DNA of 64,000 nt, taken from assembly GCA_030147845.1 (NCBI GenBank), contig JASBUN010000041.1:34630-98629 (forward strand), in the 5' to 3' direction. Each line of letters starts with the position of its first letter. The first letter of the stretch is position 1. A program made the position numbers and the translations under genes. Shown here in pieces: positions 26,686-58,003 of the stretch. The stretch is from Gammaproteobacteria bacterium (GTDB taxonomy: Bacteria > Pseudomonadota > Gammaproteobacteria > JASBUN01). The notes beneath the pieces are model-generated. The model was given only the letters and a program-made list of their open reading frames with translations, was not told where the DNA came from and did not search any database.

Positions 26686-29600
26686 TTATTCAAGAGCGAC
26701 GCGGTGCAGGCGGCGGCAGGCGGTGAACAGTAATACGGTCTCGATCACCCGCTCGGGCCACAATCGAGCCGCACCCTGCGCGTACCAGCGCAGTTGCTCG
26801 ATATAGTTGCCCGCCAGTTGGTCCAAGTTTTCCGGTTGTGCGCCGGCGTGAGTCTTGTAGTCGACTATCAATATTCGTGTCGGGCTCACTATGACGCGGT
26901 CGATGACTCCGTGAACCAGATCTTGACCGGCATAATATTGAATCGCCACTTCGTTGTAGGCCCATTGCGCTGCGCTGCCGAACACGGATGCAAGTGCGGG
27001 ATCGTGCACGACTTGCCACGCTTCATCCCACCAACTTTGAAGGCGCTGGTCATCATTGTTGAGCGCAAGTTCGCGCGCCAACGCGCGCAAGGCATCGTCG
27101 CGCTTGGGCGCCGGCGCGACGCTTAGCCATTCCAACAAGCGATGGATGCCAAGCCCGCGTTGGCGGCCATCCTCGCCGGGCAGCGTGGTTGCATCTACCA
27201 TCGAAGTACTGCGGCTGGGGGCAATCTCGCGACGCCGGTTCAAGGTAGCTAGCGGCTGGCGCAGCCTCGCATCAAGGACCGGACCGCTAACCGCGGCCGT
27301 GGCTGCATCGGTTGCGCAACATTCCGGCGGTTGGACCGGTGAACGCAGTGTCAGCGTGGCGCCCTCTGGCTGCGCGATGGGCTCGAGTTGGCTGCGGATT
27401 TTTCCATACCAGCCTAAATCTTTGCCGCGCGCCGGTTCGCTACCGCTAATGATCAGATACTGGCGGGCGCGTGAAAGCGCCACATAAAGCAGATTGGCCT
27501 CTTCGCGGCGGGCGGCATCATCGTCGTGCTGTAACATGCGTGTGCTGATGGTATCCCGCTGCGCGCTCTTCGGCGCCAGGTAAAAGCTCGTTGGGCGTTC
27601 CGAGTCGGCCGGCCATTGCACCACCGTTCGCAGTGCCTCGCTGCGCGCCGTCGACGCGGTCGTGTCGGCCAAGAACACCACTGGCGCTTCCAGACCCTTC
27701 GACGCATGTATCGTCAGTATGCGAACGCGGTCGTCGGCACTGCCGGCGGGCGGCGCATCCGGCGCCTCGAGCCGATGGCGGCGCAGCTCCTGTAAACGAT
27801 GTATAAAGTGCGCGAGACTCGGGTAACGACCGCTATCGACTTCCAATGCCAGTTCCAGAAAGCGGGTTAAGTTCGAACGCGCGCGGGCGCGCAAGCCCTG
27901 CGGGAAAGCCGCTTCATAGCGACGAAGGACGTTGCCTTCGCTATAGATGCGGTCCAGCAGGTCGTGTACGGGTATCTGTCCGGCCCATGTACTCCAACGC
28001 TTCAGCAGGCGTTGTGCGCGCGCGAGTGTAGCGGTCGCCCCGGTGCTGTCGGCGAACTGTGCCAGGCGTTCATACCAGTATGCGCCACCGCCGTCCGCGG
28101 CCAAGCGTATGAGGTCTTCGTCGCTGACCGCGAACACGGGCGAACGTAGTACTTGTGCCAGCGCCAAATTGTTGTAGGGCATGACCAATATGGTTAGCAG
28201 GGCTTCCATATCCTGAATTTCCAGGCTGCTCAGCAGCGTACCGCGCTCGGCGCCGAGATAGGGGATATTCGCCTCGCGCAACGCCCTTTCGATGGCGTGG
28301 GCGTGCGTGCGCTTGCGCAGTAAAATAGAAATGTCACTGTATTGCACTGCCCGGTAGCCGTCACCGTCGACGATCGGTAGCGGTTGGCGAATCATTGCCT
28401 CAATGCGTGCGGCGATGCTGCGGCCTTCTTCGAAGTGACGCGCATCTTCCTCCACAATCCGCGCTGCATGCAGTGGGTTACGCAGTTCGGTTGCAGCGTG
28501 CGTGTTGGCGGCAGTGTCCATTGGTGGTGGCGCCGATAGTGGCAGCACATCGACCTGCCCCCAGAACGCGCGCCGGTGTGTATCGTGGGGCTTGAAGTTC
28601 GGTAAGTAGTCATTGAGTTCGCCACCGCCAAATACAGCATTGATGCAGTCGATGACGGCCGGCGAGGAACGCCAGGAGTGGTCCAGCGAATAAGATTGTG
28701 CGTCTAGATTCTGGCCCAGCCAGTCGGCGGCGCTGTCCATCAGACGAGGCTCGGCACGGCGGAATCGGTAGATCGACTGTTTTACGTCACCGACCAAAAA
28801 GACACTGCGCTGTCGTTCATTGTCGCCGGCGGCAAGCTCTTGCAGCAACGGCAGTAGCAGGCGCCATTGCGTGGGGTTCGTGTCTTGGAATTCATCGACC
28901 AGGAAATGATCGATGCGCTGGTCCAGTTTGTACTGGATCCAATGGGCGTTGTCGGCGTTATGTAGGAGTTCGTATGTTTTCCATTCCAGATCGTCGAAAT
29001 CGAGCCAGCGTTGCTCGCGCTTGATGCGTTGGTAGTGTTCCAGTAACCGCGTTCCGGCCCGGAACCATGCGCACGACAACCGCCACGTGTGGCGACGCCG
29101 GAGTTGGTCAAACAACTGTTCGAGGCGCTCGCAGAGCGAGTCGTGCAGTGCCAGGAATCGCTGTTGCGCCTCCGCGCCCATATTTTTTTCTTGGGTTTTA
29201 CTAGCCTTGCGTACGCGGCGTGTACCGCTGCCGGTAAAAAAGACTTGGCGCAGCAATGCCCAGCGTTGCTCGTCGTCGAGCTGGGTGTCCAGTGCCTGGG
29301 TCAAGAGACCGGCGTGCCCAAGGTTGCTGGCGGTTGCGTGTCGCTGCAGCAGCGCCGCAAAGTGGCTCACGTCGGCGCTCATTGCGGCTACAAACGCCGC
29401 GCCCGGATCGGCGTCGGGATCGATGTCGAGTAACCGTAACAGCGACTGTTCGGCATATGCCGGCGCGTCAGCCTGCCCCTCTGTGAATGCCCACCAGTCG
29501 CTACGGTGATGCAGAAAGGCGGATAGCGCCGCGTGCGTATTGTGTAAGCCGCCGCACTGGTCAAACAGTGTTTCCAGCGCGCGTGCGGTGGCGCCGTCTT

Positions 29601-30114
29601 GAGCCGCTGTGGCTTCGTTATAGAGTGCATCCCAGGCCTCGTTTTGGAGTAGCCCGGCGGTGTCGAGCAACTCGAACCCCGGCGGTACCGAGGCCTCCAG
29701 TGGAAAACGTTGTAGCGTGTCCTGGCAGAAGGCATGGAAGGTCGTGGCGCGCACCGGGTGTTCGCTAAACAGTAGTTCTTCGTAGAGGCGACGCGCCCGG
29801 GCCCGGGTTTCGGCGTTAGCGGTGGCGCCCAGCTCAGCCAGTGCCTGATCGAGTTGGCGTTCGGATAGGTGCACATAGCTGAGCAAGCGTTGGTTTAGCC
29901 GTGTCAGTATTTCCGCAGCCGCTTTACGCGTGAATGTGACGGCGAGAATACCGTCCGGGGGCGCGCCGGCGAGCAAAAGTCGCACCAGACGCGTGACCAA
30001 CAACCAAGTCTTGCCGGTGCCCGCGGAGGCCATGACGGTAGCGTTGTTAGATGGCGTGGCGGCCTGCAGGCTGGCGGACATGTCGATTCGGGTTCGAGTA
30101 ACGGTATTGCGCAT
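26686..30114 (-). CDS. addA: UvrD/Rep-family helicase-nuclease, AddA-like
   Basis: Walker A ASAGTGKTWLL, VDEFQDT helicase motif II, and C-terminal PD-(D/E)XK element ILIVDYKTH. Confidence 0.85.
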   Translation of the reverse strand: MRNTVTRTRIDMSASLQAATPSNNATVMASAGTGKTWLLVTRLVRLLLAGAPPDGILAVTFTRKAAAEILTRLNQRLLSYVHLSERQLDQALAELGATANAETRARARRLYEELLFSEHPVRATTFHAFCQDTLQRFPLEASVPPGFELLDTAGLLQNEAWDALYNEATAAQDGATARALETLFDQCGGLHNTHAALSAFLHHRSDWWAFTEGQADAPAYAEQSLLRLLDIDPDADPGAAFVAAMSADVSHFAALLQRHATASNLGHAGLLTQALDTQLDDEQRWALLRQVFFTGSGTRRVRKASKTQEKNMGAEAQQRFLALHDSLCERLEQLFDQLRRRHTWRLSCAWFRAGTRLLEHYQRIKREQRWLDFDDLEWKTYELLHNADNAHWIQYKLDQRIDHFLVDEFQDTNPTQWRLLLPLLQELAAGDNERQRSVFLVGDVKQSIYRFRRAEPRLMDSAADWLGQNLDAQSYSLDHSWRSSPAVIDCINAVFGGGELNDYLPNFKPHDTHRRAFWGQVDVLPLSAPPPMDTAANTHAATELRNPLHAARIVEEDARHFEEGRSIAARIEAMIRQPLPIVDGDGYRAVQYSDISILLRKRTHAHAIERALREANIPYLGAERGTLLSSLEIQDMEALLTILVMPYNNLALAQVLRSPVFAVSDEDLIRLAADGGGAYWYERLAQFADSTGATATLARAQRLLKRWSTWAGQIPVHDLLDRIYSEGNVLRRYEAAFPQGLRARARSNLTRFLELALEVDSGRYPSLAHFIHRLQELRRHRLEAPDAPPAGSADDRVRILTIHASKGLEAPVVFLADTTASTARSEALRTVVQWPADSERPTSFYLAPKSAQRDTISTRMLQHDDDAARREEANLLYVALSRARQYLIISGSEPARGKDLGWYGKIRSQLEPIAQPEGATLTLRSPVQPPECCATDAATAAVSGPVLDARLRQPLATLNRRREIAPSRSTSMVDATTLPGEDGRQRGLGIHRLLEWLSVAPAPKRDDALRALARELALNNDDQRLQSWWDEAWQVVHDPALASVFGSAAQWAYNEVAIQYYAGQDLVHGVIDRVIVSPTRILIVDYKTHAGAQPENLDQLAGNYIEQLRWYAQGAARLWPERVIETVLLFTACRRLHRVALE

Positions 30115-30327
30115 TCTCCCAGAATCGATCTCTGTGAGCGAACTGTGGCCGAGTGTGGTGAATTGGTTTGTAGGCCGAGTCTGATATTGCTGTAGGGAAT
30201 GCCTGGATGGTGATGTGCGACAACGCCTCGTTGTATAGCTTATTTTTCTTCTAATATATTGAACTTATTATGGTTGTTTGGTTGACGGGCGATGCCGGCT
30301 GGCGCCCAGCAGCACTGATTTCACGTT

Positions 30328-30355
30328 TTGCAACACGCGTAAATACCCGTATAAA
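30328..30355 (+). promoter_or_regulatory. Candidate sigma70 promoter of small RNA candidate 1
   Basis: TTGCAA (30328-30333), 16-nt spacer, TATAAA (30350-30355). It has the same architecture as the promoter proposed at 30589-30616. Confidence 0.4.
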
Positions 30356-30361
30356 TAGCCT

Positions 30362-30496
30362 CTAATCGTGCACTTTGGTGCCGATTAGACCAGGGAAGGT
30401 GAACAGGGAGGGTAACAAGGACGAAGTGGCAAATGGAATTGCCGGGGGCAGGATCGCCCTGAGGGACGAAAAGGCGGCGTAATGCCGCCTTTTCTT
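30362..30496 (+). ncRNA. Candidate CsrB/Rsm-type (CsrA/RsmA-sequestering) small RNA 1
   Basis: No coding potential. Six A(N)GGA motifs fall in about 75 nt (GGA at 30394, 30407, 30419, 30435, 30451, 30464). Two sit in hairpin loops (GGCAA-ATGGAA-TTGCC; GGGC-AGGATC-GCCC). There is a 5' hairpin TCTAATCG...CGATTAGA, and the element ends in an intrinsic terminator. Confidence 0.5.
30473..30496 (+). terminator. Intrinsic terminator (AAAA upstream makes it potentially bidirectional)
   Basis: GGCGGC (30473-30478), loop GTAAT, GCCGCC (30484-30489), then TTTTCTT. Confidence 0.7.
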
Positions 30497-30554
30497 ATAC
30501 AGGCGGGGAAATTTGGGTGATTATGGGAGTGGTGTAGGCGAACTCCGAAAATTC

Positions 30555-30572
30555 TGTAGGCCAAATCCTACA
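30555..30572. promoter_or_regulatory. GacA/UvrY-box-like palindrome
   Basis: TGTAGG-CCAAAT-CCTACA is a perfect 6-N6-6 palindrome. It differs from the Pseudomonas GacA upstream activating sequence TGTAAG-N6-CTTACA by one symmetric position. It is centred about 60 nt upstream of the predicted start of small RNA 2. Extra TGTAGG half-sites lie at 30533-30538 and 30191-30196. Confidence 0.45.
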
Positions 30573-30588
30573 AAAAATATACGTCATG

Positions 30589-30616
30589 TGGACAGAGTTA
30601 CAATAATTGATATAAA
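30589..30616 (+). promoter_or_regulatory. Candidate sigma70 promoter of small RNA candidate 2
   Basis: TGGACA (30589-30594), 16-nt spacer, TATAAA (30611-30616). Confidence 0.35.
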
Positions 30617-30622: not shown

Positions 30623-30841
30623 TCTAACCACGTTACATCGGTGCGAACGGCGGGCGTGAGAGTGTGAGGCTGATACTGCGGCTGATTGCGTCGGTCACGA
30701 AATCCGCTCACACTAGCCCTTGCTGGGCCATCATGGATGGCCTCAAGGACCACACCGGATGGAGGAGCCATACGGCTGTGCATTGGGCCGGGAGGGCTCA
30801 TAATGGACACAAAAGGCGGCCTGCGGGCCGCCTTTTCATTT
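30623..30841 (+). ncRNA. Candidate CsrB/Rsm-type small RNA 2
   Basis: Seven GGA motifs are concentrated in 30733-30808 (CATGGAT, CAAGGAC, CCGGATGGAGGAG, CGGGAGG, AATGGAC); five fit A(N)GGA. The 5' part is structured (GAGTGTGAG...CTCACAC). A strong terminator closes it. The track ORFs here (30664..31134, 30686..31258) are antisense to addB and implausible. Confidence 0.45.
30815..30841. terminator. Bidirectional intrinsic terminator (small RNA 2 on plus strand, addB on minus strand)
   Basis: GGCGGCC (30815-30821), loop TGCG, GGCCGCC (30826-30832). It is flanked by AAAA upstream and TTTTCATTT downstream, and lies 29 nt beyond the addB stop. Confidence 0.7.
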
Positions 30842-30869
30842 GCCTCCGAAAAACATCACGCGCGGCCGA

Positions 30870-33800
30870 TCACGGCGCCGCCTGTGCGGATTCGAGCCAC
30901 GCCTCGCGTCGGCAAAGACCCGACATCGGACAGTGTTTGCATACCTGTTCGTCACCCCAGGCCGGTAAGGCCGCGCCGGCGGCGGCTTCATCCAAAACCG
31001 ATGCCAGGCGCCGGCGCACGCGATCGCGCAGTTCGCTCAGTTCGGTTCCGTCCAGCATCGAGGCCGATTCAACGTGCTCGCCATCGAGCCGGACGTATTC
31101 CACCTGCGTCGTCGAACCGTGCAGTATGGCGTAGCTCGCCAACTGCACCGCTTCGCCTTGCATCACCATGTCCGCGTTCGGGGTGGCGCCGGTTTTATAA
31201 TCGATCACGGCATGTTGGCCGGAGCCGTTGGCGTCGACGCGGTCCAGGCGTCCTTTGAGTCGCCAAGTCGGCCCGATGGTTTGTTCACAGGCGCTTTCCA
31301 CCGCCACGACTGACCAGTGCCGCTGACGTTCGATCTGCCAGTCGATATAGGCGGGGATCAGGCTCAGCCAACGTTTGAGCCATCCTCTGTGCATGAAATT
31401 GTCTTCCAGATCCTTGGCGAATTGCGCATGCGCAATCGCCTGCAGGCAATCAATCGCGCGCGCGCGGTTTTCCGCCGTAAGTGGTTCTGAGAATGGTCCC
31501 GGCAGACCATCCACAGTGGCGTGAAATGCCTGCAGGCAGCGATGCACGCGCTGTCCGTAGTCGGACTTTTCCAGCACTTCGCGAATTTCATCTACCGGCT
31601 TGAGTTGCAAGCAGTCGGCGGCGAAAAACTGATATGGACAATCCACCAAACGTTGGTGGGCGCTTGCGGATACTGCGTGCGGCAATTTGTCGGCCGCAAC
31701 TTGTGGGCGCGGATACGGCATCGGATGCGGTAGTTCTGCTTCGTCAAATGTACATACATCGGTGTCCGATGCCGACAACAGGTGGGTCAATCCGGCATCA
31801 TCCAGACCGCAGCCGAAGGCGCTATTGTGAAAGGTTTCAAGCGCCTCCAGCCACGGCGAAACGACCACCTCGTCGCCGTCCTGCTGGCGGTGACAAGTGA
31901 TCAGAACTCGATTTGAGGAACTCAGGAGGCGACGAAAATGATAAAAGCGCTCGGTGAGGGTTTCATGCCAGCTCGGCAGTTTGAGTTCGCCACGTACGGC
32001 GTCGTTGAAATACGGTGAAGGCGTGCCGCTACCGGGCAGATGACTGATTTCGGCGCCGGCGATGATCAGCGCGTCGAAACGGCATAAATGACTTTGTTCT
32101 AACGTCAGGAGTTGTACCGCACTGTTGGCGGTATTGGGTCGGAAGCTCGCGCGTTCCAGCGCGCGTCCCAACCAACCGCGGAATTCGCTCCAGTTCATGC
32201 GCACCTGCCGTTGGTCGGTGGCCGCGCGTAGCTGCTGAAGTTGTTGCAGTACACGAAACCCAGCCGCGTCGGCGGCTAACGTGCGGCGCAGCTCGAGTGC
32301 GTCGAGGCTGAAATCGAGTGCGTCCAAATAACGTTGTGGTAAATGCGGCCGTCCGCCAAACAGGGCCTGTAACGGCGCCGCGGCGTGCGCCAAATGATCG
32401 AGTAATTGCGCGATGCGTGCGGTTGCCGGCGCCGACCACTTGAGCCTGCGCGCACGGAAGCGTAGATGTCGACGATAGCGGGCGAGGCCGCGGGCGACGT
32501 TCTCGTGTAGAACGATATCCCGCTCGAGGCGATAAACCGCGGCGCGAAAACCATCGGCATCGTCCAGTGGTAGCAGGAACGGTGATTTGAGCAGATCGAG
32601 CAGCGGTTGATGTGCGAAATCCTCTTCCACCGTTTGTAGCCAGCGCTCGATGACGGTCGCGGCACTGGTGGTGGATAACGCCCAGCCACCAGTATCGTCC
32701 AGCACGATCTCGGCGCGTTCGAGCAATGCCCGTACACGGCGAGCGAGGCGACGATCCTCGGTGACAATGCCGATGCTCGCCATGCCCTCGAGCAGCCAAC
32801 GGCGTACTTGTAGGTCGATCGCCCGCGCTTCCTGTTCGGCGTCCTCGGCGTGGAAGCTCATCAAACGGTTACGTGCCGGACTGTCGGCGCCGGTTCCCCG
32901 CCTGAAGTTTCGTGCGCGCTCTGATAACGGATTATCGCGGTATGCGTACGTGGCATCAATGAACAGCGATAGCGCGTCGGTCGACTTGGTCGCGTGCGGC
33001 GCGATGTGCAGCATGGCGGTAAGCCGCGTGAGCGCCGCATCAGGGTGGTAGTGATCGCTGCCGAACGCGCCGTGCAAAATTAGTTCGAGCTGGCCGCGCT
33101 TCAGCAATGCTTGTAACCAGGCGCATTCAGCGCTGGTGGCACGATACCATCCGAGCACGAATATGGTCTGATTCGTACGGATACTGTCGAGCGATTGGCG
33201 CAGCCGCAATATATAGGCGCTATTAGGGTCGATGCGTCCATGCGCATGTAACTGTTGGTGCCACGCGCGCCACAGCGTGTGTACCAGGGTTGCTTCGCGT
33301 CCCAGGTGGGCCGGTGTCGTTGCGCGAGTGCCGTAGCCGCGGCCGATTCGGCTGATGAATTCGTCGACATTGTCCGGCAGTTGAACATCGAAACGGGTAA
33401 GCTCATCGAAAAATTGCAATAGGCTTTCGCAGAGTCGCCACGGATCGGCGTCGCCGAACAGCGTACGATGTTGTTGTAGTGCCTCCATGAGAATCAGGTC
33501 GCGACCGACATTTTGGACGGCCGGCGTGTGGGCGATGCAGAGGGAATCAAGCCAGCCAGGCAAGGTGTCGATGCGCGGACCGAGCAAGGCGCTAAGGCCG
33601 CGATCAGCCGCACCACGCAGTAGCAACTCGCGTAGGCGCGGTGCGGACTGGGTGTCGGGCAACAAAACGACGACCTGGTCGAGATCGGGCAAGGCATCGG
33701 CGTGCCGGGTCAATATGCGTTCGGCGGCAAACGCTAGCGGGTCGCCGTCATAGGGCAGCAGATGGATGGGTTGCGACACGTGGTGCGACACGGTATTGAT

Positions 33801-33896
33801 TGCTATCCCGAACGGCCGGATTGCTTCGGCAGGGGCGCGGCGCACGGCGTATACCGGTGGTTTGACGCCGGATTTTGCGATGACAATGCAAGCCAT
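30870..33896 (-). CDS. addB: PD-(D/E)XK nuclease-family double-strand break repair protein, AddB-like
   Basis: About 1000 aa, upstream of the addA-like gene. C-terminal nuclease element AVIDYKTGA followed by the Cys cluster CKHCPMSGLC. Confidence 0.8.
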   Translation of the reverse strand: MACIVIAKSGVKPPVYAVRRAPAEAIRPFGIAINTVSHHVSQPIHLLPYDGDPLAFAAERILTRHADALPDLDQVVVLLPDTQSAPRLRELLLRGAADRGLSALLGPRIDTLPGWLDSLCIAHTPAVQNVGRDLILMEALQQHRTLFGDADPWRLCESLLQFFDELTRFDVQLPDNVDEFISRIGRGYGTRATTPAHLGREATLVHTLWRAWHQQLHAHGRIDPNSAYILRLRQSLDSIRTNQTIFVLGWYRATSAECAWLQALLKRGQLELILHGAFGSDHYHPDAALTRLTAMLHIAPHATKSTDALSLFIDATYAYRDNPLSERARNFRRGTGADSPARNRLMSFHAEDAEQEARAIDLQVRRWLLEGMASIGIVTEDRRLARRVRALLERAEIVLDDTGGWALSTTSAATVIERWLQTVEEDFAHQPLLDLLKSPFLLPLDDADGFRAAVYRLERDIVLHENVARGLARYRRHLRFRARRLKWSAPATARIAQLLDHLAHAAAPLQALFGGRPHLPQRYLDALDFSLDALELRRTLAADAAGFRVLQQLQQLRAATDQRQVRMNWSEFRGWLGRALERASFRPNTANSAVQLLTLEQSHLCRFDALIIAGAEISHLPGSGTPSPYFNDAVRGELKLPSWHETLTERFYHFRRLLSSSNRVLITCHRQQDGDEVVVSPWLEALETFHNSAFGCGLDDAGLTHLLSASDTDVCTFDEAELPHPMPYPRPQVAADKLPHAVSASAHQRLVDCPYQFFAADCLQLKPVDEIREVLEKSDYGQRVHRCLQAFHATVDGLPGPFSEPLTAENRARAIDCLQAIAHAQFAKDLEDNFMHRGWLKRWLSLIPAYIDWQIERQRHWSVVAVESACEQTIGPTWRLKGRLDRVDANGSGQHAVIDYKTGATPNADMVMQGEAVQLASYAILHGSTTQVEYVRLDGEHVESASMLDGTELSELRDRVRRRLASVLDEAAAGAALPAWGDEQVCKHCPMSGLCRREAWLESAQAAP

Positions 33897-33970
33897 TGCA
33901 CCCCTAGGTCGCCGACCGCGTGCGTCCGTCGAGGACTAAGAGTAGCTGGAGCAAGGCGGTGCAATGGTGG

Positions 33971-34294
33971 TCAGCGTTCCAGGTATTGAAGTTTATCGGG
34001 CTTCCCGTCCCATTCCTCGGCGTCCGGCGGGGCATCCTTCTTCTCCGTGATGACCGGCCAGTCGCGGCATAACTCGGCATTTAATTCCGTCAAGTGCTGC
34101 TGCCCTTCCGGGACATCGTCTTCGGCGAATATGGCCTCGGCGGGACACTCGGGTTCGCACAAACTGCAGTCAATACACTCTTCGGGGTCGATAACTAAAA
34201 AATTCGGTCCCTCATGGAAGCAATCGACCGGGCAGACTTCGACACAATCGGTGTATTTGCATTTGATGCAATTTTCAGTAACGACGTAGGTCAT
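33971..34294 (-). CDS. fdxA: 7Fe ferredoxin
   Basis: [51 protein letters not shown]. Confidence 0.95.
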
Positions 34295-34433: not shown

Positions 34434-35453
34434 CTAATTGGCCAGATCCGTGCGTGCGATGACCCGGTTGCGGCCCTGCTCCTTGGCTTCGTAGAGCGCT
34501 TTATCCGCCAACTCGATCAACATCTGTACACCGCTGTCGTTCGATGGTGTCAGCGTTGCTATTCCGGCGCTGATGGTCAGGTGGGTATCGACCGTGGAGC
34601 CTTTGTGCGGAATTTCGAGCGCCCGCACCGCCGCACGCACGCGTTCAGCGACCAAGGTAGCGCCGTGCGGATCCGTATTCGGCAAGACGACGGCAAACTC
34701 TTCACCGCCGTAGCGCGCTACCAAATCCGCCGGCCGACTGGCCGTTTTGTCGAGGATGCGAGCGACGCGTTGCAGGCAGTCGTCACCACCCTGGTGACCG
34801 TAGGTGTCATTGAACGGCTTGAAAAAATCAATATCGATGAGAATAAGCGAAAGCGTGCCGTGCTCACGTTCAATGCGCTTCCATTCAGCGTCCAGCGTGG
34901 TATCGAACTGTCGACGATTCGCAATTCCGGTCAGCCCATCCAGTGACGACAACCGCTGTAGTTCGGCGTTGGTTTTTTCGAGTTGACGTTGCATCTCGCG
35001 CAGAGCCATGAATGCGGCGTCGCGTTCGAGCTGCATAAGGTAATTTTTTGTGTGCGCGCGAATGCGGGCGATCAATTCGATTTTATTCGGGAGTTTTACC
35101 AGATAGTCGTTGGCGCCATTGGAAAAGGCGTCGCTCTTAATAACCGGATCCTCCTTGGAGGATAAAACGATGATCGGAATATCGCGGGTGACGTTATTGG
35201 CGCGGAAAAAGCGTACCAGCGTCATGCCGTCGATGTCGGGCATGATCAGATCCTGCAGAATGATAGTGGCATCGAGTTCGGATGCAGTTTGTATGGCGGC
35301 GGAAGGATCGGCGCAATAATGAAACTCCATATCGCTTTCGCCTTGCAACATGCGGCGGATGCCTTCGGCTACCATGGCTTGGTCGTCGACCAGGAGGACT
35401 TTTATGATTTTGTCATTGGAAATACTGGCGCTGAGCTCGTTATTATTGGTCAT
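34434..35453 (-). CDS. wspR: Response-regulator diguanylate cyclase (REC-GGDEF), WspR-like
   Basis: REC domain (VLLVDDQ...LIMPDIDG), RPAD I-site, and RYGGEEFAV. It is the last gene of the Wsp-order operon. The start at 35453 (MTNNNELS) overlaps the cheB-like stop. Confidence 0.85.
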   Translation of the reverse strand: MTNNNELSASISNDKIIKVLLVDDQAMVAEGIRRMLQGESDMEFHYCADPSAAIQTASELDATIILQDLIMPDIDGMTLVRFFRANNVTRDIPIIVLSSKEDPVIKSDAFSNGANDYLVKLPNKIELIARIRAHTKNYLMQLERDAAFMALREMQRQLEKTNAELQRLSSLDGLTGIANRRQFDTTLDAEWKRIEREHGTLSLILIDIDFFKPFNDTYGHQGGDDCLQRVARILDKTASRPADLVARYGGEEFAVVLPNTDPHGATLVAERVRAAVRALEIPHKGSTVDTHLTISAGIATLTPSNDSGVQMLIELADKALYEAKEQGRNRVIARTDLAN

Positions 35454-36501
35454 GGTGTTGCTGCCCCCTGGCTGGGTGTTCCTTCCCATTCCGGGTCAGT
35501 TCCCGGGTCAGTGCGTGGGCGATATCGCCGACTGGTAGAACGTCGGCTGCGGCGTTCAGTTCTACGGCGGCTTTTGGCATCCCATACACAGCGCAACTGT
35601 TTTTATCCTGAGCGATGGTATACATACCCCGGCGTTTTAATGCAAGCAGGCCGCTGGCGCCGTCGCGTCCCATACCCGTGAGTAATACGCCGATGGCGTC
35701 GTCCTGCCAGTAGGTGGCGACGCTGTCGAAAAAGACGTCTACCGACGGCCGATAGATATGCGCGGCGGGTTCCGCGGTGTAATGGAGACGGCCGTTTTTT
35801 CTTAGGATCAAGTGATCACTTGTGCCCGCGATGAGCACTGTTCCAGCCTGGGGGCGATCGCCGTCTTCGGCCAGACGCACGTTAAGTGGCGATTGATCAT
35901 TCAGCCACTGTGCCAGGCCGGGCGCGAAATGGCTATCGACATGCTGAATGATGACGATGCCGGCGCTGAAGTCGGCGGGCAGTGCACTTAGAATTTGTGC
36001 CAATGAGCCGGGGCCGCCGGTCGACGAGCCGATGGCGATTAGCGACGTGCTGAATTGTCCGCGTTGCGCCGGCAGGGCTGGCGCTGGCTGTGGTGCAGGC
36101 GTATGTCGCGAGATCAAATGACTGATGGAATCGAGCTTTTTCTTTAGACTCTGAATCCCATCGCGCGTGCGTGCGCCGCCAAGCGTAGGCGTGCTGATCG
36201 CGTCCAGCGCGCCGGCAGCCATGGCTTCGAACACCTTGGCGGAATTGCCGGTGACCGACGCGGTTACCACCAAGATTGCGCACGGTGTGGCGTCCATAAT
36301 GCGTTTGCTGGCTTCGATGCCGTCCATGTGCGGCATGATCAGATCCATGAGTATGGCGTCAGGGCGGTCGGCGGCGCATTGTTCGACCGCTTGAACGCCG
36401 TCGGCCGCGGTCCAGGCGATGGTGTGTTCCGTGTATTCCAAAATCACGTGGGTGAGCGCTGACACTACCATGCTGACATCATTGACGATCGCGATTCTCA
36501 T
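35443..36501 (-). CDS. wspF: Protein-glutamate methylesterase CheB (WspF-like)
   Basis: REC domain plus the methylesterase motif GSSTGGPGSL. Confidence 0.9.
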   Translation of the reverse strand: MRIAIVNDVSMVVSALTHVILEYTEHTIAWTAADGVQAVEQCAADRPDAILMDLIMPHMDGIEASKRIMDATPCAILVVTASVTGNSAKVFEAMAAGALDAISTPTLGGARTRDGIQSLKKKLDSISHLISRHTPAPQPAPALPAQRGQFSTSLIAIGSSTGGPGSLAQILSALPADFSAGIVIIQHVDSHFAPGLAQWLNDQSPLNVRLAEDGDRPQAGTVLIAGTSDHLILRKNGRLHYTAEPAAHIYRPSVDVFFDSVATYWQDDAIGVLLTGMGRDGASGLLALKRRGMYTIAQDKNSCAVYGMPKAAVELNAAADVLPVGDIAHALTRELTRNGKEHPARGQQHHDQ

Positions 36502-39203
36502 GCCGTCGCCGCTCCGATCAGGTCGTTGACCGAATTAATCAGCGTTTCGTCATGGAAACTGCCTTTGGCCAGGTAGTAATCCGCGCCTGCGTCAAGGCCG
36601 CGATCGCGGTCCTCCGGTCGATCTTTGTAGGACACGATCATCACCGGCAGCGCGCGCAACACCGGGTCTTTTTTAATCATGGTGACGAGCTCGATGCCGT
36701 TTAGACGCGGCATATCGATGTCGCTGATAATAAGGTCGTAATCGCCGGTGCGTACCGTGTTCCATCCATCCATTCCATCCACCGCCACATCCACCTCGTA
36801 ACCCTTGGATTGCAGCAATTTGCGTTCAACTTCGCGCACCGTTAGCGAATCGTCGACCACCAGAATGCGCTTGGTCGTACGCTTGTCTGCATTACTTGAG
36901 CGTTTGACTTTGTGCAGCCGCTTCCCTGAGACCAGGACGTCGATAGAACGCGCTAAATCGTCCACATCGAAGATCAATACCGGTTCGCCTTCCTCGGTTA
37001 TGGCTGCTGCGCTGATATCTTGAATCTTGCCTAAGCGTGGATCGATCGTGTGTACCGCTAGATCGCGGCGGCCGATGAACTGTTCTACGACGAGGCCATA
37101 ACTTGCGTTACGATCGCCGATCACCACCACCGGCAGGCTCATGTCTGAGTTTTCGCCATTCTTACGCCCGAGAACCTGAGTCGCATCCACCAAGCCGATG
37201 TGCTGATCTCCGTAGGTAATATATTGGCGGTCTTCCAGCGTCTCGATTTGACCACGTTCTATTTTTAGGATGTGCTCGATGCGCGCCAGTGGGAATGCGT
37301 AGAGCTCGCCGGCGATGCGTACGATGAGGCTGCGAATCACCGACAGAGTGAGTGGTAGCTGCAGATTGACGCACATCCCCTGGCCTGGATTAGTGGTCGA
37401 TCGAATTTGGCCACGCATTTCCTGCACCGTGCTGTGGACCACGTCCAAGCCGACACCGCGACCGGAAACTTCCGTGACCTCATCTCGGGTCGAAAACGCC
37501 GGCAGAAACAAGAAGTCGAGGAGTTCGGATTCCGATAAATCGGCCGCCATCGCCGCGCTGACCATTTCACGTTCGACGATCCGCTTGCGTAGTCCATCCA
37601 AATCGACCCCGCGTCCATCATCACTGATGACGATAGAAAGGAGCCCTGCGCTGTGAAGCGCCTCCAGGCGAATCGAACCGACCGCAGGCTTGCCGGCCTG
37701 CGCACGTTGTTCGGGCGATTCGATGCCGTGGTCAACGGCATTGCGCAGTAGATGGTTGAGTGGTGCTTCGATTTTTTCGAGGATATCGCGGTCGACCTGC
37801 GTATCCAGACCAGCAATATGCAACTCTACTTGTTTGCCAAGCGAGCGTGCGATATCACGGACCATGCGTTTGAAGCCTTGTACGGCGTCTCCGAATGGCC
37901 GCATACGGCTGGTGATGACCTCATGATTCAGGCGGCTGGTCAGGTTGCTGATACGGCGATCAAAGTCTTCCAGCTCCGAAATTCGCCCCGCCAGCGACTG
38001 ACGACACTCGTCCGCTTTAGACTGTGTTGTCTGTAGCATGTTTTTGGCGAGATCGTTCAGTGTGTTTTCGTCCAAGGCATTATGAAGGCGATCGAGATGT
38101 GCAAGCAATTCGGTGTGACGACGTTTTAAAATCAACAGGGAGTCGGCATATGAGCGCAGCCAGCCTGCCGAGACACGAAATTCGCCGGCGTAACCCACCA
38201 GGCGATTAACACGCTCAGCGCTGATTCTTAGTACGCGTTCGCCGCCCTTGGCGGCGGGAACTTGGGCAGCGGCGGGGTCGGGCTCGCGTCGCTGTACGTC
38301 CGGCTTGGCTTGTGGAGGCGATTTGTCGCCACGCAATATGCCTCCTAATTCGGCCGTAAGGGCGGCGATGGCCGGCTGATTCTGTTTACGCCACTGATTA
38401 TGTTGATCGTTCGGTAATTGAGCGATGCTTGCCAGCAGATCGACACCACGCAACAGTACGTCAATGTCATCGCCGAGCAATTGGATGCGTGCTTCCTGTG
38501 CAGCGACAAAACAGTCTTCCATGCTGTGTGCGACGTCAACCGCGCTGGCGACGTCCACTAAGCGCGCCGCGCCCTTGATCGAGTGCGCCGCGCGCATCAA
38601 TGCCTCCAGCAATTTGGCCTGGTCGGCGCTGCTCTCCAACTCCAAAAGCCCTTGTGTCAACGCGCCGGTATGGGTTTCCACTTCGATACGAAATAGATCG
38701 AGCATGTCGACATCGTGATCGGCGTGGGCGGCGGGGCGCGGTACGTTATCGGCGCACTGTGTATTGCGCACGGCGTTTGAGGCCGCCGGCTTGGAATTGT
38801 CGTCGCGTACTCTCGCCAACTGCGCGACTAATTGTTGTAACTCATGCTGTTCATCAACCGATTGCTGCTCGTGTTGATCGGCGCTCTGCTTCGCGATGCG
38901 CGACAGCATGTCGACGCCGGTAAGTAAGGTATCGACGTGTTCGGCACGCAAAATCAAGCGTCCCGCTTGTGCCGCGACGAAACAATCCTCCATGACATGA
39001 GCGATTTCCACCGCGCTAGGCACGTCAACTAAACGCGCAGCGCCTTTGATAGAATGAGCGGCGCGCATGAGAGATTCCAAAAGCGACGTATCGTTGGGTC
39101 GACTTTCCAGCGCCAGTAGTCCTTCGCTGAGCGCCGAGGCATGCGTGTCCGTTTCCAGACGGAACAGCTCAAGCATGGTATCGTCGTTGAATTGGCTGGA
39201 CAT
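36498..39203 (-). CDS. wspE: Hybrid CheA histidine kinase with two HPt domains, a CheW-like domain and a C-terminal REC (WspE-like)
   Basis: Two copies of LMRAAHSIKGAARLVDV (His codons at 39056-39054 and 38585-38583). HATPase motif GRGVGLDVV. C-terminal ILVVDDSLTVRE...DIDMPRLNG. Confidence 0.9.
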   Translation of the reverse strand: MSSQFNDDTMLELFRLETDTHASALSEGLLALESRPNDTSLLESLMRAAHSIKGAARLVDVPSAVEIAHVMEDCFVAAQAGRLILRAEHVDTLLTGVDMLSRIAKQSADQHEQQSVDEQHELQQLVAQLARVRDDNSKPAASNAVRNTQCADNVPRPAAHADHDVDMLDLFRIEVETHTGALTQGLLELESSADQAKLLEALMRAAHSIKGAARLVDVASAVDVAHSMEDCFVAAQEARIQLLGDDIDVLLRGVDLLASIAQLPNDQHNQWRKQNQPAIAALTAELGGILRGDKSPPQAKPDVQRREPDPAAAQVPAAKGGERVLRISAERVNRLVGYAGEFRVSAGWLRSYADSLLILKRRHTELLAHLDRLHNALDENTLNDLAKNMLQTTQSKADECRQSLAGRISELEDFDRRISNLTSRLNHEVITSRMRPFGDAVQGFKRMVRDIARSLGKQVELHIAGLDTQVDRDILEKIEAPLNHLLRNAVDHGIESPEQRAQAGKPAVGSIRLEALHSAGLLSIVISDDGRGVDLDGLRKRIVEREMVSAAMAADLSESELLDFLFLPAFSTRDEVTEVSGRGVGLDVVHSTVQEMRGQIRSTTNPGQGMCVNLQLPLTLSVIRSLIVRIAGELYAFPLARIEHILKIERGQIETLEDRQYITYGDQHIGLVDATQVLGRKNGENSDMSLPVVVIGDRNASYGLVVEQFIGRRDLAVHTIDPRLGKIQDISAAAITEEGEPVLIFDVDDLARSIDVLVSGKRLHKVKRSSNADKRTTKRILVVDDSLTVREVERKLLQSKGYEVDVAVDGMDGWNTVRTGDYDLIISDIDMPRLNGIELVTMIKKDPVLRALPVMIVSYKDRPEDRDRGLDAGADYYLAKGSFHDETLINSVNDLIGAATA

Positions 39204-39205
39204 GG

Positions 39206-39880
39206 TTATACCAACTTTCTGCTCAACGCATGAAATACAAGTTCATCGTCCAGGCAGCCGACGTGCACATCGTCGACATTGATAATTCCCTTAATGAACG
39301 TCGAAGCCGCTTTCGCCACGGTCGCCGGTGCGACTTCAATCTGATCCGCATGAAAGCGGAAAATATTCTTCACTTCACTGACGGGAAATACGTAACGTTC
39401 GCCGTTGCGTTCGGTTACCAGGATACGCTCGTGCGTTTTTATGCCTTCCATGGCGTGCGCCGAGCCTTTATCTAGACCGATAAGATGACCCAGAGAAACG
39501 CATAAGTGAAGTTCCCCTCGAAGATTGATTAGACCCTTTAGCACACGATCGTTGGTGTGCGGTATGCTATGTATCAGGCGCATATCAGCGATTTCACAAA
39601 TCAATCGATTGGGCAGACATAGCCATTCGTTGCCGATTCGAAACATCAGCGCGGATTCGAGTGTGTCGGTCGATGACGCGATCGGTGTGCTGAGGTTTTG
39701 CCCCCATTCATCGAGATAGCCGTCAGGCGCCGCACGGTCGAGCAGGTTACGTCCTGCCGACGAGTAGATGTTACAGTTGTGACAGTGGATGACCTGATCG
39801 AGCTTAGGACAGCGCGGACGCTCGTTGCCCCAAATGCCGATACGATTCCAGCAGTCTATTAGTTTGATATTGGCGCTCAT
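39206..39880 (-). CDS. wspD: CheW-domain coupling protein (WspD-like)
   Basis: The CheW-like region (FRIGNEWLCLP...INLRGEL) follows a Cys-rich N-terminal extension. The position matches wspD. Confidence 0.8.
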   Translation of the reverse strand: MSANIKLIDCWNRIGIWGNERPRCPKLDQVIHCHNCNIYSSAGRNLLDRAAPDGYLDEWGQNLSTPIASSTDTLESALMFRIGNEWLCLPNRLICEIADMRLIHSIPHTNDRVLKGLINLRGELHLCVSLGHLIGLDKGSAHAMEGIKTHERILVTERNGERYVFPVSEVKNIFRFHADQIEVAPATVAKAASTFIKGIINVDDVHVGCLDDELVFHALSRKLV

Positions 39881-39907
39881 CGGCTTTACTGTGGCTTATC
39901 GCACGAC

Positions 39908-41176
39908 TCAGTTCTTCGCGCGTTCGGCTCTCCTTCTAAGCAGCGCGGCGTTTTTGGCATCCCCGCGTTGTTCAACGATCAGCGCGAGGTGGACCAGCGA
40001 CTCGTAGTGTTGAGGGTCGAGGTAAACCGCCTTGCGCAAGTGCTCCTCGGCGGCAGTCGTCTCTCCTAGGGACTCTTCGATTAGGCCCAATAAAAAATAG
40101 CTGTCCCCACATGGGCCATCGCTACTAATCTGTTCCTGACAAATCGCTCTGGCGGCCTGCAAATCACCCTTATCCGCTAGCTGCCGCGCACGCTGCAATG
40201 GCTTGATCTTCGCCGCTGTTGCGTCGGCCGCCGGCGCCGTCGCTGTGATGCCCGTAGGCGCAGGCCTGACTTGCGTCGGTGCGTTTATGCGCTGATGCGG
40301 CGGCCGAGCGCTTGCATCGCGCCGCCGTATCGATGCCTTTTGTGCAGGACGATCGGCCGCATTCTTGCTTGCCTCAGGCAGCACCTTTCTGAACGAGAAG
40401 GCGCTCGCCGGCCCCAAGCTGGTAAATAGTGTCTGCGGAATGACGCCGCACTCGGCATGCCCCAAGAACAGAACTCCGTCGTCTTTTAATACGCGGTGCA
40501 AAGTCTTGTGTGCACGCTGCTTGGTCTGCTCGTCAAAATAGATGAGCAGGTTGCGACAAAAGATGATGTCGTAGTTATGTCCCGGTATACCGGTGGTATT
40601 GGACAGTATATTGCCTTGGCGGAAATAAACTTGATCGCGAATTTGCTTGGCGATTATGTAGCGATCGTGTTCGCGCTGGAAGTAACGCTCACGAATAGTC
40701 GGGTCCTGTTTGCCGCGAAACGAGTGCATTCCGTAGGAGCCGCGTAGTGCGTATTCAAGCGCTTGTTGACTGACGTCGATGGCATCGATTTTAAACTGCG
40801 CGGCGCGTAAACCGGCCTCAAACAGCGTGATGGCAATAGAGTAGGGTTCTTCGCCAGTTGAACATGGCAGGCTGAGTATGTGCAGCGGCTCTTGCTCGGT
40901 AATACGCCCAAAACGTTGATGCACGTTTTCTTTTAGGGTTACAAACGGCTTCGAATCACGAAAAAACCAAGTCTCGGGCACCACAACCGCTTCAATAAGC
41001 TGCTTAAGTTCACCTGGCGATGTTTGCAGATGATCGGCATATTCTTCCAATCGTTCAATGCGGCATACGGCCATACGCTGATGCGCGGCACTGTCGATTG
41101 CGGACGTGCCGACCGATTGCGCGTGTAGTCCGATGTGTTCCTTCAGCAGCTGAGCGATGCGGTCAAGAGTGTTCAT
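39908..41176 (-). CDS. wspC: CheR methyltransferase with C-terminal TPR (WspC-like)
   Basis: ETWFFRD, SLPCSTGEEPYSIAI and FCRNLLIYF motifs, with a TPR-like tail. Confidence 0.9.
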   Translation of the reverse strand: MNTLDRIAQLLKEHIGLHAQSVGTSAIDSAAHQRMAVCRIERLEEYADHLQTSPGELKQLIEAVVVPETWFFRDSKPFVTLKENVHQRFGRITEQEPLHILSLPCSTGEEPYSIAITLFEAGLRAAQFKIDAIDVSQQALEYALRGSYGMHSFRGKQDPTIRERYFQREHDRYIIAKQIRDQVYFRQGNILSNTTGIPGHNYDIIFCRNLLIYFDEQTKQRAHKTLHRVLKDDGVLFLGHAECGVIPQTLFTSLGPASAFSFRKVLPEASKNAADRPAQKASIRRRDASARPPHQRINAPTQVRPAPTGITATAPAADATAAKIKPLQRARQLADKGDLQAARAICQEQISSDGPCGDSYFLLGLIEESLGETTAAEEHLRKAVYLDPQHYESLVHLALIVEQRGDAKNAALLRRRAERAKN

Positions 41177-41711
41177 CGTTTACCACTGCCGGGGCGATCG
41201 ACACATGTGCGTCAATTGCGCATCTGGATGTGCTGGCGGAAGTTGGCGCAGGCGCGAGTTGGTCCGACTGAAACAGTCGCGCAAGCACCGAGTCCGGAAG
41301 CATGCGATTGTGATCGACTAGCTGAATGAGCCCATCGGCGTCGCTGCAGATACCTTCGAGAAAAGGGGCGGCTGCGACCGTGACTCCCGACGGGACTAAT
41401 TCGTCCTCGCGTCGATGTATGGTTCCATTTACCTGCTCGGCGATCAGGCCAAGGACGTGCGATGTAGCGGAAGCGGCTGTATGGCGAACCAAAATAATGC
41501 GCGTACTCATGCGCGTCAGGCTGGGGCGCTGTTCGAACAGCTGGCATAGATCGATTACCGGAACCGGCGTGCCGCGGTAACTGAAAATGCCGGCGACATA
41601 GGCATCCGATAACGGTAGCTGCTTCATGCGCACCACCGGCGTTATCTCGACAACCGCGTCTGTCCGCATTGCGTAACGTTCTTCGCCTATTGTGAAAGTT
41701 ACCAGTAGCAT
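41163..41711 (-). CDS. wspB: CheW coupling protein (WspB-like)
   Basis: LLVTFTIGEERYAM...IFSYRGTPVPVIDL is the CheW fold pattern. Confidence 0.85.
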   Translation of the reverse strand: MLLVTFTIGEERYAMRTDAVVEITPVVRMKQLPLSDAYVAGIFSYRGTPVPVIDLCQLFEQRPSLTRMSTRIILVRHTAASATSHVLGLIAEQVNGTIHRREDELVPSGVTVAAAPFLEGICSDADGLIQLVDHNRMLPDSVLARLFQSDQLAPAPTSASTSRCAIDAHVSIAPAVVNDEHS

Positions 41712-41723
41712 TGATCGGCGCGG

Positions 41724-46975: not shown

Positions 46976-48286
46976 ATGCCAATGGGAACAGTACAGAGTA
47001 CCAAACCTCTATCTTCCCGGACAGTGGAGACGATGAAGCCGGGAGATAAGATTAAGGCCGACACGGGAGAAAACATTGGGTTGCGAGTGAAATGTGGGGC
47101 TACCGGCGTAAAGACATTTTTCTATCGCTATACCAGCCCGATCACCTCAAAGCTCGTTCAGGTGAAAATCGGCAACTTCCCGGAGACCTCCCTGGCCGAA
47201 GCGAGATTGAAGCTCCAGGGACTTAAACAAATTCGCCGCCAGGGGCACTGCCCGGCAACTGAGGCCAAAGAGGAGAAACGGCAGAAACGGGAGCAAGCCC
47301 AGGAATTGGAACAGGGACGAGTAGAGTCAGTAGAGAAGCCCTTCACCGCGGAGAACCTCGTAGAACTCTACCTGACCCAGTATATCGAAGACCGGAAATC
47401 TCCAAGCGGAAGAAAAATCGCCGGTGCACGAAAACCGAAAGGTCAGTCTGAGACGCGCAGAACCCTCTATGGCGATGTGATTCCCAAGTTGGGGGAGATG
47501 CCGGCAAATGCTGTCACGCGAAAGGCTGTGGTGGATATGATCATGGCAATTGTTCAACGTGGGGCAAATGTTCAAGCAGGAAATGTACTGAGAGAGCTTG
47601 CCGCCGCCTACGAATTTGCGATTGGTCTGGGCTATTTTTCAGATGAGTTTGCAAATCCGGCAATTCTCGCCAAATCAAGCCTCAAACAGGCCAAGGTGAA
47701 GCTTACCCATCAACGAGGAAAAAGAGTCCTCTCTGATACCGAGTTGGCGACGTTGCTGAAATGGTTGCCTGGCGCTGATTACACCGCAACACAAAAGAAT
47801 GTTCTTCGATTTACCCTCTGGACAGGGTGTCGTACCGGAGAGGTCTGCAATGCGGCCTGGAAGGACATCGACTTGAAGAAACGGACATTCCACATAAGGG
47901 AGAGTAAGACGGAGGTCGAGCGCTATGTACAATTGCCCCGTCAGGCGGTGGAATTCTTAACAACTCTTCGCCTGACCACTGGAGACTATCTGTTCCCATC
48001 CCAGAAAACGCGGCTGCCTATCCAGCAAAAACAACTAACCGAGCAGGCCTGGCGGATGAGGCAAAGCAACAGCATGGTAAATCTTCCGTCCTGGACACCT
48101 CATGATCTGCGCAGAAGTGTCAGGACTGGTCTGTCACGCTTGCAATGTCCTAACGAAGTGGCTGAAGCGGTATTGGGGCATTCACGTAAGGGGATTGAAG
48201 GAACCTACGATTTGCACAGGTACGAGGCGGAGTGTAGGCAGTGGTTACAGAAATGGGCGGATCATCTGGACTCGCTTATTCGTTAG
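46976..48286 (+). CDS. int: Tyrosine integrase, P4/CP4-57-like with N-terminal arm-binding (DUF4102-like) domain
   Basis: N-terminus LRVKCGATGVKTFFYRYTSP...VKIGNFPETSLAEARLK. Catalytic elements WTGCRTGEV, HDLRRSVRT and LGHSRKGIEGTYDLHRY. Confidence 0.92.
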   Translation: MPMGTVQSTKPLSSRTVETMKPGDKIKADTGENIGLRVKCGATGVKTFFYRYTSPITSKLVQVKIGNFPETSLAEARLKLQGLKQIRRQGHCPATEAKEEKRQKREQAQELEQGRVESVEKPFTAENLVELYLTQYIEDRKSPSGRKIAGARKPKGQSETRRTLYGDVIPKLGEMPANAVTRKAVVDMIMAIVQRGANVQAGNVLRELAAAYEFAIGLGYFSDEFANPAILAKSSLKQAKVKLTHQRGKRVLSDTELATLLKWLPGADYTATQKNVLRFTLWTGCRTGEVCNAAWKDIDLKKRTFHIRESKTEVERYVQLPRQAVEFLTTLRLTTGDYLFPSQKTRLPIQQKQLTEQAWRMRQSNSMVNLPSWTPHDLRRSVRTGLSRLQCPNEVAEAVLGHSRKGIEGTYDLHRYEAECRQWLQKWADHLDSLIR

Positions 48287-48578
48287 TAGTTGAGGCTCGA
48301 TCTTACAGTAAGTGCCAGTCTTCAACTGGCCGTGTTCGACCCGTTCCCGTCATTCCGGCGAATGCCGGAGTCCAGGCAGCCGCAAGGAAACGCGGGTCTT
48401 GGAACGATCCTAAGCAGACGGTTAGTCGTGTAAACTGTCCCCAGAATTCCTCCAGGTATTCTGTTGACCGAAAAACCGGGCTGCTTTACACGGATAATGA
48501 CAAACAAACTGCGGTTACTTAAGGCAAGACTGATGAAGCCTGTAGTGGCCGTTCTACCGATCAAAGGAGGTAAACGCC

Positions 48579-57998: not shown

Positions 57999-58003
57999 GC
58001 TCG

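Follow-up and report, generated by a model that had tools for sequence, protein, structure and literature searches.

Does the spacer between the addB and addA genes of a gammaproteobacterium (GTDB lineage JASBUN01) encode a small RNA (sRNA) that titrates the regulator CsrA/RsmA? The question is raised by a stretch of 64,000 nucleotides (64 kb) of contig JASBUN010000041.1, here called the window, in which an initial annotation had pointed out a candidate Csr/Rsm-type sponge RNA. Our analysis indicates that positions 30363-30497 probably encode such an RNA, sRNA1, a CsrA/RsmA sponge activated by a GacA/UvrY-type regulator and carrying six binding motifs (about three dimers), and that it is one of a tandem pair. 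From the sequence we infer its transcription, the identity of its activator and its binding of CsrA. sRNA1 is a new sequence family of a known RNA kind, outside Rfam and with a fixed genomic address.

Class assignment followed the criteria of Kulkarni et al. 2006 (PMC1488887), namely an intergenic position, a high density of AGGA/ARGGA, a Rho-independent terminator at the 3' end, GGA motifs that fall in loops or free regions, and a site conserved upstream. All five are found in sRNA1 (PMC1488887), which supports the Csr/Rsm-type architecture that had been proposed for it; of the refuting conditions named with that proposal, none of those that could be applied went against it.

Anatomy of sRNA1

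sRNA1 is intergenic: it lies inside the 755-nt spacer that separates addB from addA, is encoded on the other strand than these two genes and overlaps neither coding region. Its elements and the two flanking genes are listed below, with the predicted probability that the GGA is unpaired, P(unpaired), and with reference to the minimum free energy (MFE) and centroid structures.

30363-30497, + strand: sRNA1, non-coding RNA of about 135 nt, putative CsrA/RsmA sponge (5' end predicted)
30328-30355, + strand: promoter-like TTGCAA-16-TATAAA (-35 at 30328-30333, 16-nt spacer, -10 at 30350-30355)
30361-30389, + strand: 5' hairpin without GGA, in MFE and centroid structures
30392-30423, + strand: three GGA sites in a mostly unpaired stretch, CAGGGAA, CAGGGAG and CAAGGAC (P(unpaired) 0.97, 0.61 and 0.82), aligned to conserved GGA columns of the family
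30428-30443, + strand: helix 1, GGCAA-AUGGAA-UUGCC, GGA in the hexaloop (P(unpaired) 0.99), in MFE and centroid structures
30445-30460, + strand: helix 2, GGGGC-AGGAUC-GCCCU, GGA in the loop (P(unpaired) 0.83), aligned to helix 2 of the family
30462-30468, + strand: last GGA site, GAGGGAC, unpaired and directly 5' of the terminator (P(unpaired) 0.85), counterpart of the invariant GUAUGGAGGUA of relatives
30469-30496, + strand: intrinsic terminator AAAAGGCGGC-GUAAU-GCCGCCUUUUCUU (DNA: AAAAGGCGGC-GTAAT-GCCGCCTTTTCTT), stem GGCGGC/GCCGCC nearly invariant in the family
26686-30114, - strand: addA, AddA-type helicase-nuclease (UvrD-helicase, UvrD_C and PD-(D/E)XK domains)
30870-33896, - strand: addB, AddB-type nuclease (PD-(D/E)XK)

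All the parts that the initial annotation had described are indeed there. The TTGCAA-16-TATAAA promoter can be read from the sequence at the place given for it and is unchanged in three strain-level variants. The opening hairpin was recovered in both predicted structures, with an 8-bp outer stem formed by TCTAATCG (30361-30368) and CGATTAGA (30382-30389) and a 4-bp inner stem GCAC/GTGC, and the unit closes, as described, with a terminator, whose 11-bp G+C-rich stem is followed by UUUUCUU. All six GGA motifs were located in the contexts quoted for them, at 30394, 30407, 30419, 30435, 30451 and 30464. The statement that the unit has no open reading frame (ORF) is incorrect to the letter, two short TTG ORFs overlapping it (35 codons at 30375-30482, + strand, and 59 codons on the - strand); the indels that separate the relatives are not multiples of three.

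The density of GGA motifs singles sRNA1 out. With five A(N)GGA per 136 nt (seven if AGGA is included), against a window mean of 0.38, it is the maximum of either strand over the 64 kb, and the only other non-coding stretch of similar density is the neighbouring unit at 30671-30868. Among further GGA-dense stretches, 33913-34171 (- strand) was rejected as an sRNA because it is ferredoxin coding sequence (gene 33971-34294), and so were 9199-9373, 52622-52822 and 57885-58045, which lie inside long ORFs; 3028-3222 (- strand) and 51511-51651 (+ strand) were dropped as having neither a terminator nor a hairpin pattern.

The motifs are predicted to be exposed. In sRNA1 the mean P(unpaired) is 0.85 for GGA bases against 0.36 for the other Gs, consistent with the single-stranded GGA on which the candidate had been proposed, and GGA was the more unpaired in each of the 14 RNAs tested, 12 of them relatives and two the units of the window, with mononucleotide shuffles as the control for accessibility. 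The fold of sRNA1 has a predicted energy of -52.6 kcal/mol (z = -3.7), and none of 200 shuffles was as stable. Helix 2 is missing from the single-sequence MFE structure; the family model described below supports it, with no non-standard pairs.

At the addA end of the spacer, the AddA alignments of many relatives begin at residue 12, which is the next in-frame ATG (30081). The true start of addA may therefore lie 11 codons downstream of the annotated one, the start of the longest ORF at 30114.

A syntenic RNA family between addB and addA

Relatives of the locus were gathered with the AddA N-terminus, giving 80 loci from GTDB genomes and 55 metagenome loci (135 in total). Nearly all are labelled Gammaproteobacteria, mostly uncultured metagenome-assembled genomes (MAGs) named Chromatiales, Ectothiorhodospiraceae, Thiohalomonadales or Acidiferrobacterales. 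These scans of GTDB genomes and metagenome contigs contained no close relative, the best identity being 52-53%. In many of the relatives an ANGGA-dense, hairpin-ended unit immediately precedes addA and is encoded on the opposite strand. Single-sequence nhmmer searches of the 135 loci with sRNA1, the sibling copy sRNA2 (see below) and the upstream regions gave marginal matches only (best E 0.024), and profiles were consequently needed. A profile hidden Markov model of three relatives (L001, L002 and L008) matched the window at 30384-30494 (E 0.0019) and at 30729-30834 (E 0.15).

A first covariance model, R1, found full-length units in at least 31 of the 135 addA loci at E < 1e-3, and at this threshold all full-length matches were upstream of addA on the opposite strand, with none elsewhere in about 810 kb. 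The second model, R2, was constructed from 13 sequences that all come from other genomes and none from the window. When run on the window at E up to 10 it gave exactly two matches, one on sRNA1 (30365-30497, 48.3 bits, E 2.1e-10, covering model positions 1-143 of 143) and one on sRNA2 (30708-30840, 30.5 bits, E 4.5e-6). Aligned to R2, sRNA1 forms all three helices with standard pairs (helix 1 with its GGA loop, helix 2 with its G(G)GA loop and the terminal hairpin GGCGGC/GCCGCC) and carries the unpaired GGA as well. We also scanned GTDB genomes with a DNA pattern that does not depend on addA; this recovered six known members and two new ones (L144 and L145), both between addB and addA. Three matches to a subfamily pattern, in Thermoleophilia, Paracoccaceae and Planobispora, were rejected as chance, since there was no model match in any of them.

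Analysis was possible for 46 genome loci. In 12 of them addB overlaps or abuts addA and there is no sRNA; in another 33 the spacer exceeds 250 nt. Summed over these 33, ANGGA occurs 196 times on the strand opposite to addA against 42 times on the sense strand.

From 5' to 3', the family consensus consists of a variable 5' hairpin, three open GGA sites (ACAAGGAAGG, CUCAAGGA and AAAGGAAGU), helix 1 (GUCACAGGAUGUGAC) with GGA in its loop, helix 2 with G(G)GA in its loop, the unpaired GUAUGGAGGUA and the terminal hairpin GAAGGCGGC...GCCGCCUUC. Outside the terminal hairpin it is the GGA triplets that make up the invariant or nearly invariant columns, so that the GGA motifs are conserved in homologous loci. 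Over 15 sequences, 94.5% of the cells of the family structure pair, and 7 of the 21 pairs show changes on both sides. Such compensatory changes affect three pairs in helix 1 and two in helix 2; the two GGA-loop hairpins that had been pointed out in sRNA1 (GGCAA/TTGCC at 30428-30443 and GGGGC/GCCCT at 30445-30460) are thus both backed by covariation among relatives. None of 500 shuffles reached the observed percentage of paired cells, the number of both-side-changed cells or the covariation score, and 2 of 500 reached the observed count of both-side-changed pairs. Sliding the partners by 1-3 columns lowered pairing to 29-45%. Fitting the alignment to the model biases it towards the structure; the margin is nonetheless large.

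The stem of the terminal hairpin is almost invariant among genomes whose AddA proteins share only about 50% identity. In L001, L002, L005, L006, L008, L016, L081, L086 and L090 (for example L008:2643-2670) the bases after the hairpin GAAGGCGGC/GCCGCCUUC are CACC or CGCUCG instead of a U-run. Four loci (L011, L024, L038 and L040) hold much longer units in the same slot, the GGA count of the spacer rising to about 27 in 545 nt, which suggests that internal duplication takes the family from the size of RsmZ to that of CsrB. GGA modules are visibly repeated at L011:2221-2486, and the spacers of L038 and L040 lie at about 2450-2990. Full-text literature searches found no paper on Csr/Rsm sRNAs in these lineages.

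Upstream boxes, the sibling copy and strain variation

Two elements upstream of sRNA1 may bear on its control.

30169-30186, + strand: upstream box TGTAGGCCGAGTCTGATA, an imperfect 18-bp inverted repeat and putative GacA/UvrY-type site, centred about 185 nt before the predicted start of sRNA1
30191-30199, + strand: half-site TGTAGGGAA, 4 nt downstream of the box; a TGT half-site stands at the same offset in 14 of 14 members

A TGTAGG-N6 box with its TGT half-site is present 175-197 nt upstream in all 14 close members, that is sRNA1 and 13 relatives. In Escherichia coli, csrB has a UvrY inverted repeat centred at -183, and phosphorylated UvrY binds this repeat (PMC4682653). Reading the E. coli csrB region directly, we found TGTGAGAGATCTCTTACA centred about 182 nt upstream, TGTAGGAGA 5 nt later and then an AT-rich spacer. 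The upstream activating sequences of Pseudomonas rsmY and rsmZ are TGTAAGCATTCTCTTACA and TGTAAGCATTCGCTTACT (PMC4353343). A further motif, TGTAAGC, stands directly before the -35 in L001, L002, L008, L081 and E. coli csrB (L231:760-775) and is absent from sRNA1 of the window; E. coli csrB has a reported second site of UvrY crosslinking there.

The second match of R2 corresponds to a paralogous tandem copy with its own upstream elements.

30623-30841, + strand: sRNA2, paralogous tandem copy, about 218 nt with 7 GGA (R2 match 30708-30840; 5' end predicted)
30589-30616, + strand: putative promoter-like TGGACA-16-TATAAA of sRNA2, read from the sequence and of the same format as that of sRNA1
30533-30572, + strand: upstream boxes of sRNA2, TGTAGGCGAACTCCGAAA (30533-30550) and the perfect palindrome TGTAGGCCAAATCCTACA (30555-30572)

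No perfect TGTAGG-N6-CCTACA other than TGTAGGCCAAATCCTACA occurs in the window, where about 0.008 would be expected from the 12 fixed bases. The two boxes of sRNA2 are 22 bp apart and only about 60-80 nt from its predicted promoter. At the other end, the sRNA2 terminator AAAAGGCGGCC-UGCG-GGCCGCCUUUUCAUUU lies 29 nt from the addB stop codon. A long 5' hairpin predicted for sRNA2 proved unsupported, as the strain L147 alters one arm without compensation. Between the two sRNA genes stands the sole consensus promoter-like site called in the spacer, TTGTAA-16-TATATT (30603-30576, - strand), which faces the sRNA1 terminator and addA.

Strain-level relatives were found only through an exact-protein look-up of the ferredoxin. 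Two Logan contigs have the same gene order, and their spacer is 99% identical to that of the window. The strain variants show no substitution in sRNA1, its promoter or any of the four boxes; the roughly 24 variable columns of the 781-nt spacer lie in the linkers and over the first 80 nt or so of sRNA2. About four changes would be expected in sRNA1 if the variation were evenly spread, and none was seen.

Further along the window, 34434-43967 (- strand) holds a Wsp-like chemosensory operon (a methyl-accepting chemotaxis protein, CheW, CheR-TPR, CheW, hybrid CheA, CheB and a response regulator with GGDEF). The region 46976-64000 looks like an integrated mobile element; it contains a tyrosine integrase beside mutS, an SMC/AAA_21-like ATPase, large Pfam-less proteins, DUF2857, a helix-turn-helix protein, AcaB, a ParM-like actin and RadC. 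No tRNA genes were found in the window.

Proposed mode of action, alternatives and relation to known systems

How would sRNA1 work? In the mechanism that we propose, the TGTAGG-N6 box and the half-site next to it, some 185 bp upstream, are the target of a GacA/UvrY-type response regulator, which would activate the TTGCAA-16-TATAAA promoter across the AT-rich spacer. The transcript would start with a protective 5' hairpin and end at the intrinsic terminator, displaying between them six GGA motifs, of which four lie in stretches without pairing and two in short hairpin loops. With two sites per dimer, one molecule would bind no more than about three CsrA/RsmA dimers through these motifs and so titrate them from their mRNA targets. 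The second copy (about 30623-30841), with its boxes much nearer to the promoter, may receive a separate regulatory input, as in sibling Csr/Rsm RNAs elsewhere.

Several results weigh against this proposal. At gathering thresholds Rfam 15 gave zero matches in the window and in 20 related loci, and in a permissive search the sole match of the Csr clan on sRNA1 was PrrB_RsmZ with 13.9 bits (gathering 44, E 1.1). The expectation that sRNA1 might be recognised by the Rfam models was thus disappointed, its scores for CsrB (RF00018), CsrC (RF00084), PrrB_RsmZ (RF00166), RsmY (RF00195) and RsmX (RF02144) all being below gathering; sRNA1 would therefore work like those RNAs while standing outside their Rfam families. 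The nearest approach in the family is the syntenic unit of L020, a Chromatiales MAG (L020:2629-2873, - strand), which aligns with the full CsrB model RF00018 at 33.1 bits and E 1e-5, below the gathering score of 71. Conversely, E. coli CsrB obtained no significant score with our family model, and we therefore do not claim homology to CsrB at the RNA level. A tblastn search for csrA was negative over the window and roughly 850 kb of related loci, and gacA/uvrY and gacS/barA are likewise absent from both. A scan of the genome collection for CsrA was saturated by Enterobacterales and relatives, and among the matches listed none came from an sRNA-bearing assembly.

Further points on the same side concern the control elements. 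The sRNA1 box differs from the palindrome TGTAGG-N6-CCTACA at 3 of 12 specified positions, and the window holds 17 matches with up to three mismatches against 11.5 expected, which puts the box by itself at chance level; it carries weight only because its position is conserved across the family, and the more distant members have no recognisable box. A consensus scanner missed the sRNA1 promoter because the last base of its -10, TATAAA, is A instead of the usual T. The terminator was not called either, and we read this miss as the effect of A/U pairs at the base of the stem, which extend it into the U-run and use part of it. In the closest relatives the 3' hairpin lacks a U-run, and instead of simply terminating transcription it might mark the RNA for processing or turnover.

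Three other explanations compete with the sponge model. sRNA1 could be a real conserved sRNA that does not act through CsrA, being instead a base-pairing regulator dependent on Hfq or ProQ, or a decoy for another RNA-binding protein, its GGA richness then being incidental or serving another partner. The empty Rfam result and the failure to find CsrA in the window or related loci would fit such an RNA, and the near-invariant 3' hairpin GAAGGCGGC/GCCGCCUUC, U-run-less in close relatives, suggests a sequence-specific partner, which the sponge model does not account for. Yet what is conserved is the GGA triplets, two of them in hairpin loops, together with their A/C-A context, and helix 1 of the consensus, GUCACAGGAUGUGAC, resembles the high-affinity CsrA hairpin known from systematic evolution of ligands by exponential enrichment (SELEX). 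GGA sites aside, there is no long conserved single-stranded seed, and related units gain length through multiplication of GGA modules (up to about 27 GGA), which fits titration better than base-pairing. The upstream box, moreover, matches the sites that drive csrB, rsmY and rsmZ (PMC4353343). We regard an sRNA acting without CsrA as unlikely, though worth keeping in mind.

Could the spacer elements instead act mainly in cis, antisense transcription and two-way terminators uncoupling or throttling addB and addA and the RNA having no function in trans? Every unit occupies the addB-addA interval on the opposite strand, and the 12 of 46 relatives in which the two genes overlap and have no spacer imply that the insertion splits a former operon. 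Both terminators, as read from the sequence, carry A-runs before and U-runs after the stem and could therefore stop transcription both ways, and the sRNA1 box is only 55 nt from the annotated addA start codon. The spacing of the relatives tells otherwise: the distance from box to sRNA start is fixed (175-197 nt), whereas that from box to addA, as read from their spacers, ranges from about 55 to more than 300 nt. Pure transcription interference, besides, would not need the selection seen on RNA features (GGA columns and compensatory pairs), and sRNA1 overlaps neither coding region. An action confined to cis is therefore, in our view, rather improbable, more so than an sRNA with another partner.

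Last in plausibility comes a chance cluster of GGA in a non-transcribed spacer. That the consensus scanners called neither promoter nor terminator would agree with it; however, the R2 match reaches E 2.1e-10 with no window sequence in the model, at least 31 loci are syntenic, and there are covariation, a strand asymmetry of 196 to 42 and zero substitutions among the strain variants. On this comparative evidence chance appears very unlikely.

A sponge RNA may also do more at this locus than titrate CsrA. It is conceivable, if we would not bet on it, that the placement of the sRNA in a split addB-addA operon is functional and couples double-strand-break repair by AddAB to Gac/Csr signalling, or else that the invariant 3' hairpin GAAGGCGGC/GCCGCCUUC is a site for a turnover or processing factor. 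Two features together would produce the coupling: sRNA and addB converge on two-way terminators, and only 55-90 nt separate the GacA/UvrY-type boxes from the start of addA, both in the window and in its nearest relatives.

Sponge RNAs of the Csr/Rsm type are the control knob of a main post-transcriptional network in Gammaproteobacteria, and they evolve fast, so that each lineage needs its own model. The model presented here covers a large, mostly uncultured group outside Rfam 15, under the labels Chromatiales, Ectothiorhodospiraceae, Thiohalomonadales and Acidiferrobacterales, with the addB-addA spacer as landmark. It would improve the annotation of MAGs and offers a starting point for Gac/Csr control in sulfur-cycling bacteria. 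The promoter layout of the csrB type (inverted repeat at about -185, half-site and AT-rich spacer) is not limited to enteric bacteria. The general understanding of the Csr/Rsm system is unchanged, and a specialist will find the result unsurprising.

Compared with CsrB of E. coli and Salmonella (RF00018), sRNA1 is likewise non-coding, with repeated GGA in loops and free regions and an intrinsic terminator. The promoter geometry is also alike: csrB has an 18-bp inverted repeat about 183 nt upstream, a TGTAGG half-site 4-5 nt further on and an AT-rich spacer, and sRNA1 has TGTAGGCCGAGTCTGATA at about -185 and TGTAGGGAA 4 nt after it. In contrast, CsrB is annotated with 369 nt and has 16 single-stranded AGGA/ARGGA sites (PMC1488887), where sRNA1 has about 135 nt and six. 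Neither unit of the window scores against RF00018, and the context differs, csrB being next to syd and yqcC in E. coli and sRNA1 between addB and addA.

The RsmZ/PrrB, RsmY and RsmX RNAs of Pseudomonas are roughly 115-130 nt long and have a handful of GGA sites. sRNA1 is close to them in size and number of sites, presents GGA in short hairpin loops and linkers in the same way and, like them, is accompanied by a sibling, there being several copies per Pseudomonas genome. The 18-bp upstream palindrome of Pseudomonas, TGTAAG-N6-CTTACA (PMC4353343), is separated from the TGTAGG-N6-CCTACA of the window by one symmetrical change per half. Unlike these similarities, the sequences of RsmZ, RsmY and RsmX (RF00166, RF00195 and RF02144) cannot be aligned with those of the window, RsmY and RsmX giving no match, and the Pseudomonas genes lie next to rpoS whereas the window units are inside the addB-addA spacer. 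In Pseudomonas rsmZ adjoins fdxA and mutS (PMC4353343). In the window a ferredoxin gene of the fdxA type (Fer4 and DUF3470; 33971-34294, - strand) directly precedes addB, and mutS (44194-46770, - strand) follows 10 kb further; the common neighbourhood may be a remnant of shared ancestry. A ferredoxin stands before addB in relatives as well (L139:3723-4043, L136:8-154, L057 and L059).

The csrB siblings of Vibrio and Photobacterium (PMC1488887; PMC6262261) resemble the window pair as duplicated Csr sRNA genes predicted from the same five features, the window copies being in tandem. The Vibrio CsrBs differ in being about 400 nt long and findable from one another by BLAST, whereas the copies of the window are related only at the profile level. 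All in all, sRNA1 is closest to RsmX, RsmY and RsmZ in size and number of sites, and closest to csrB in the layout of its promoter.

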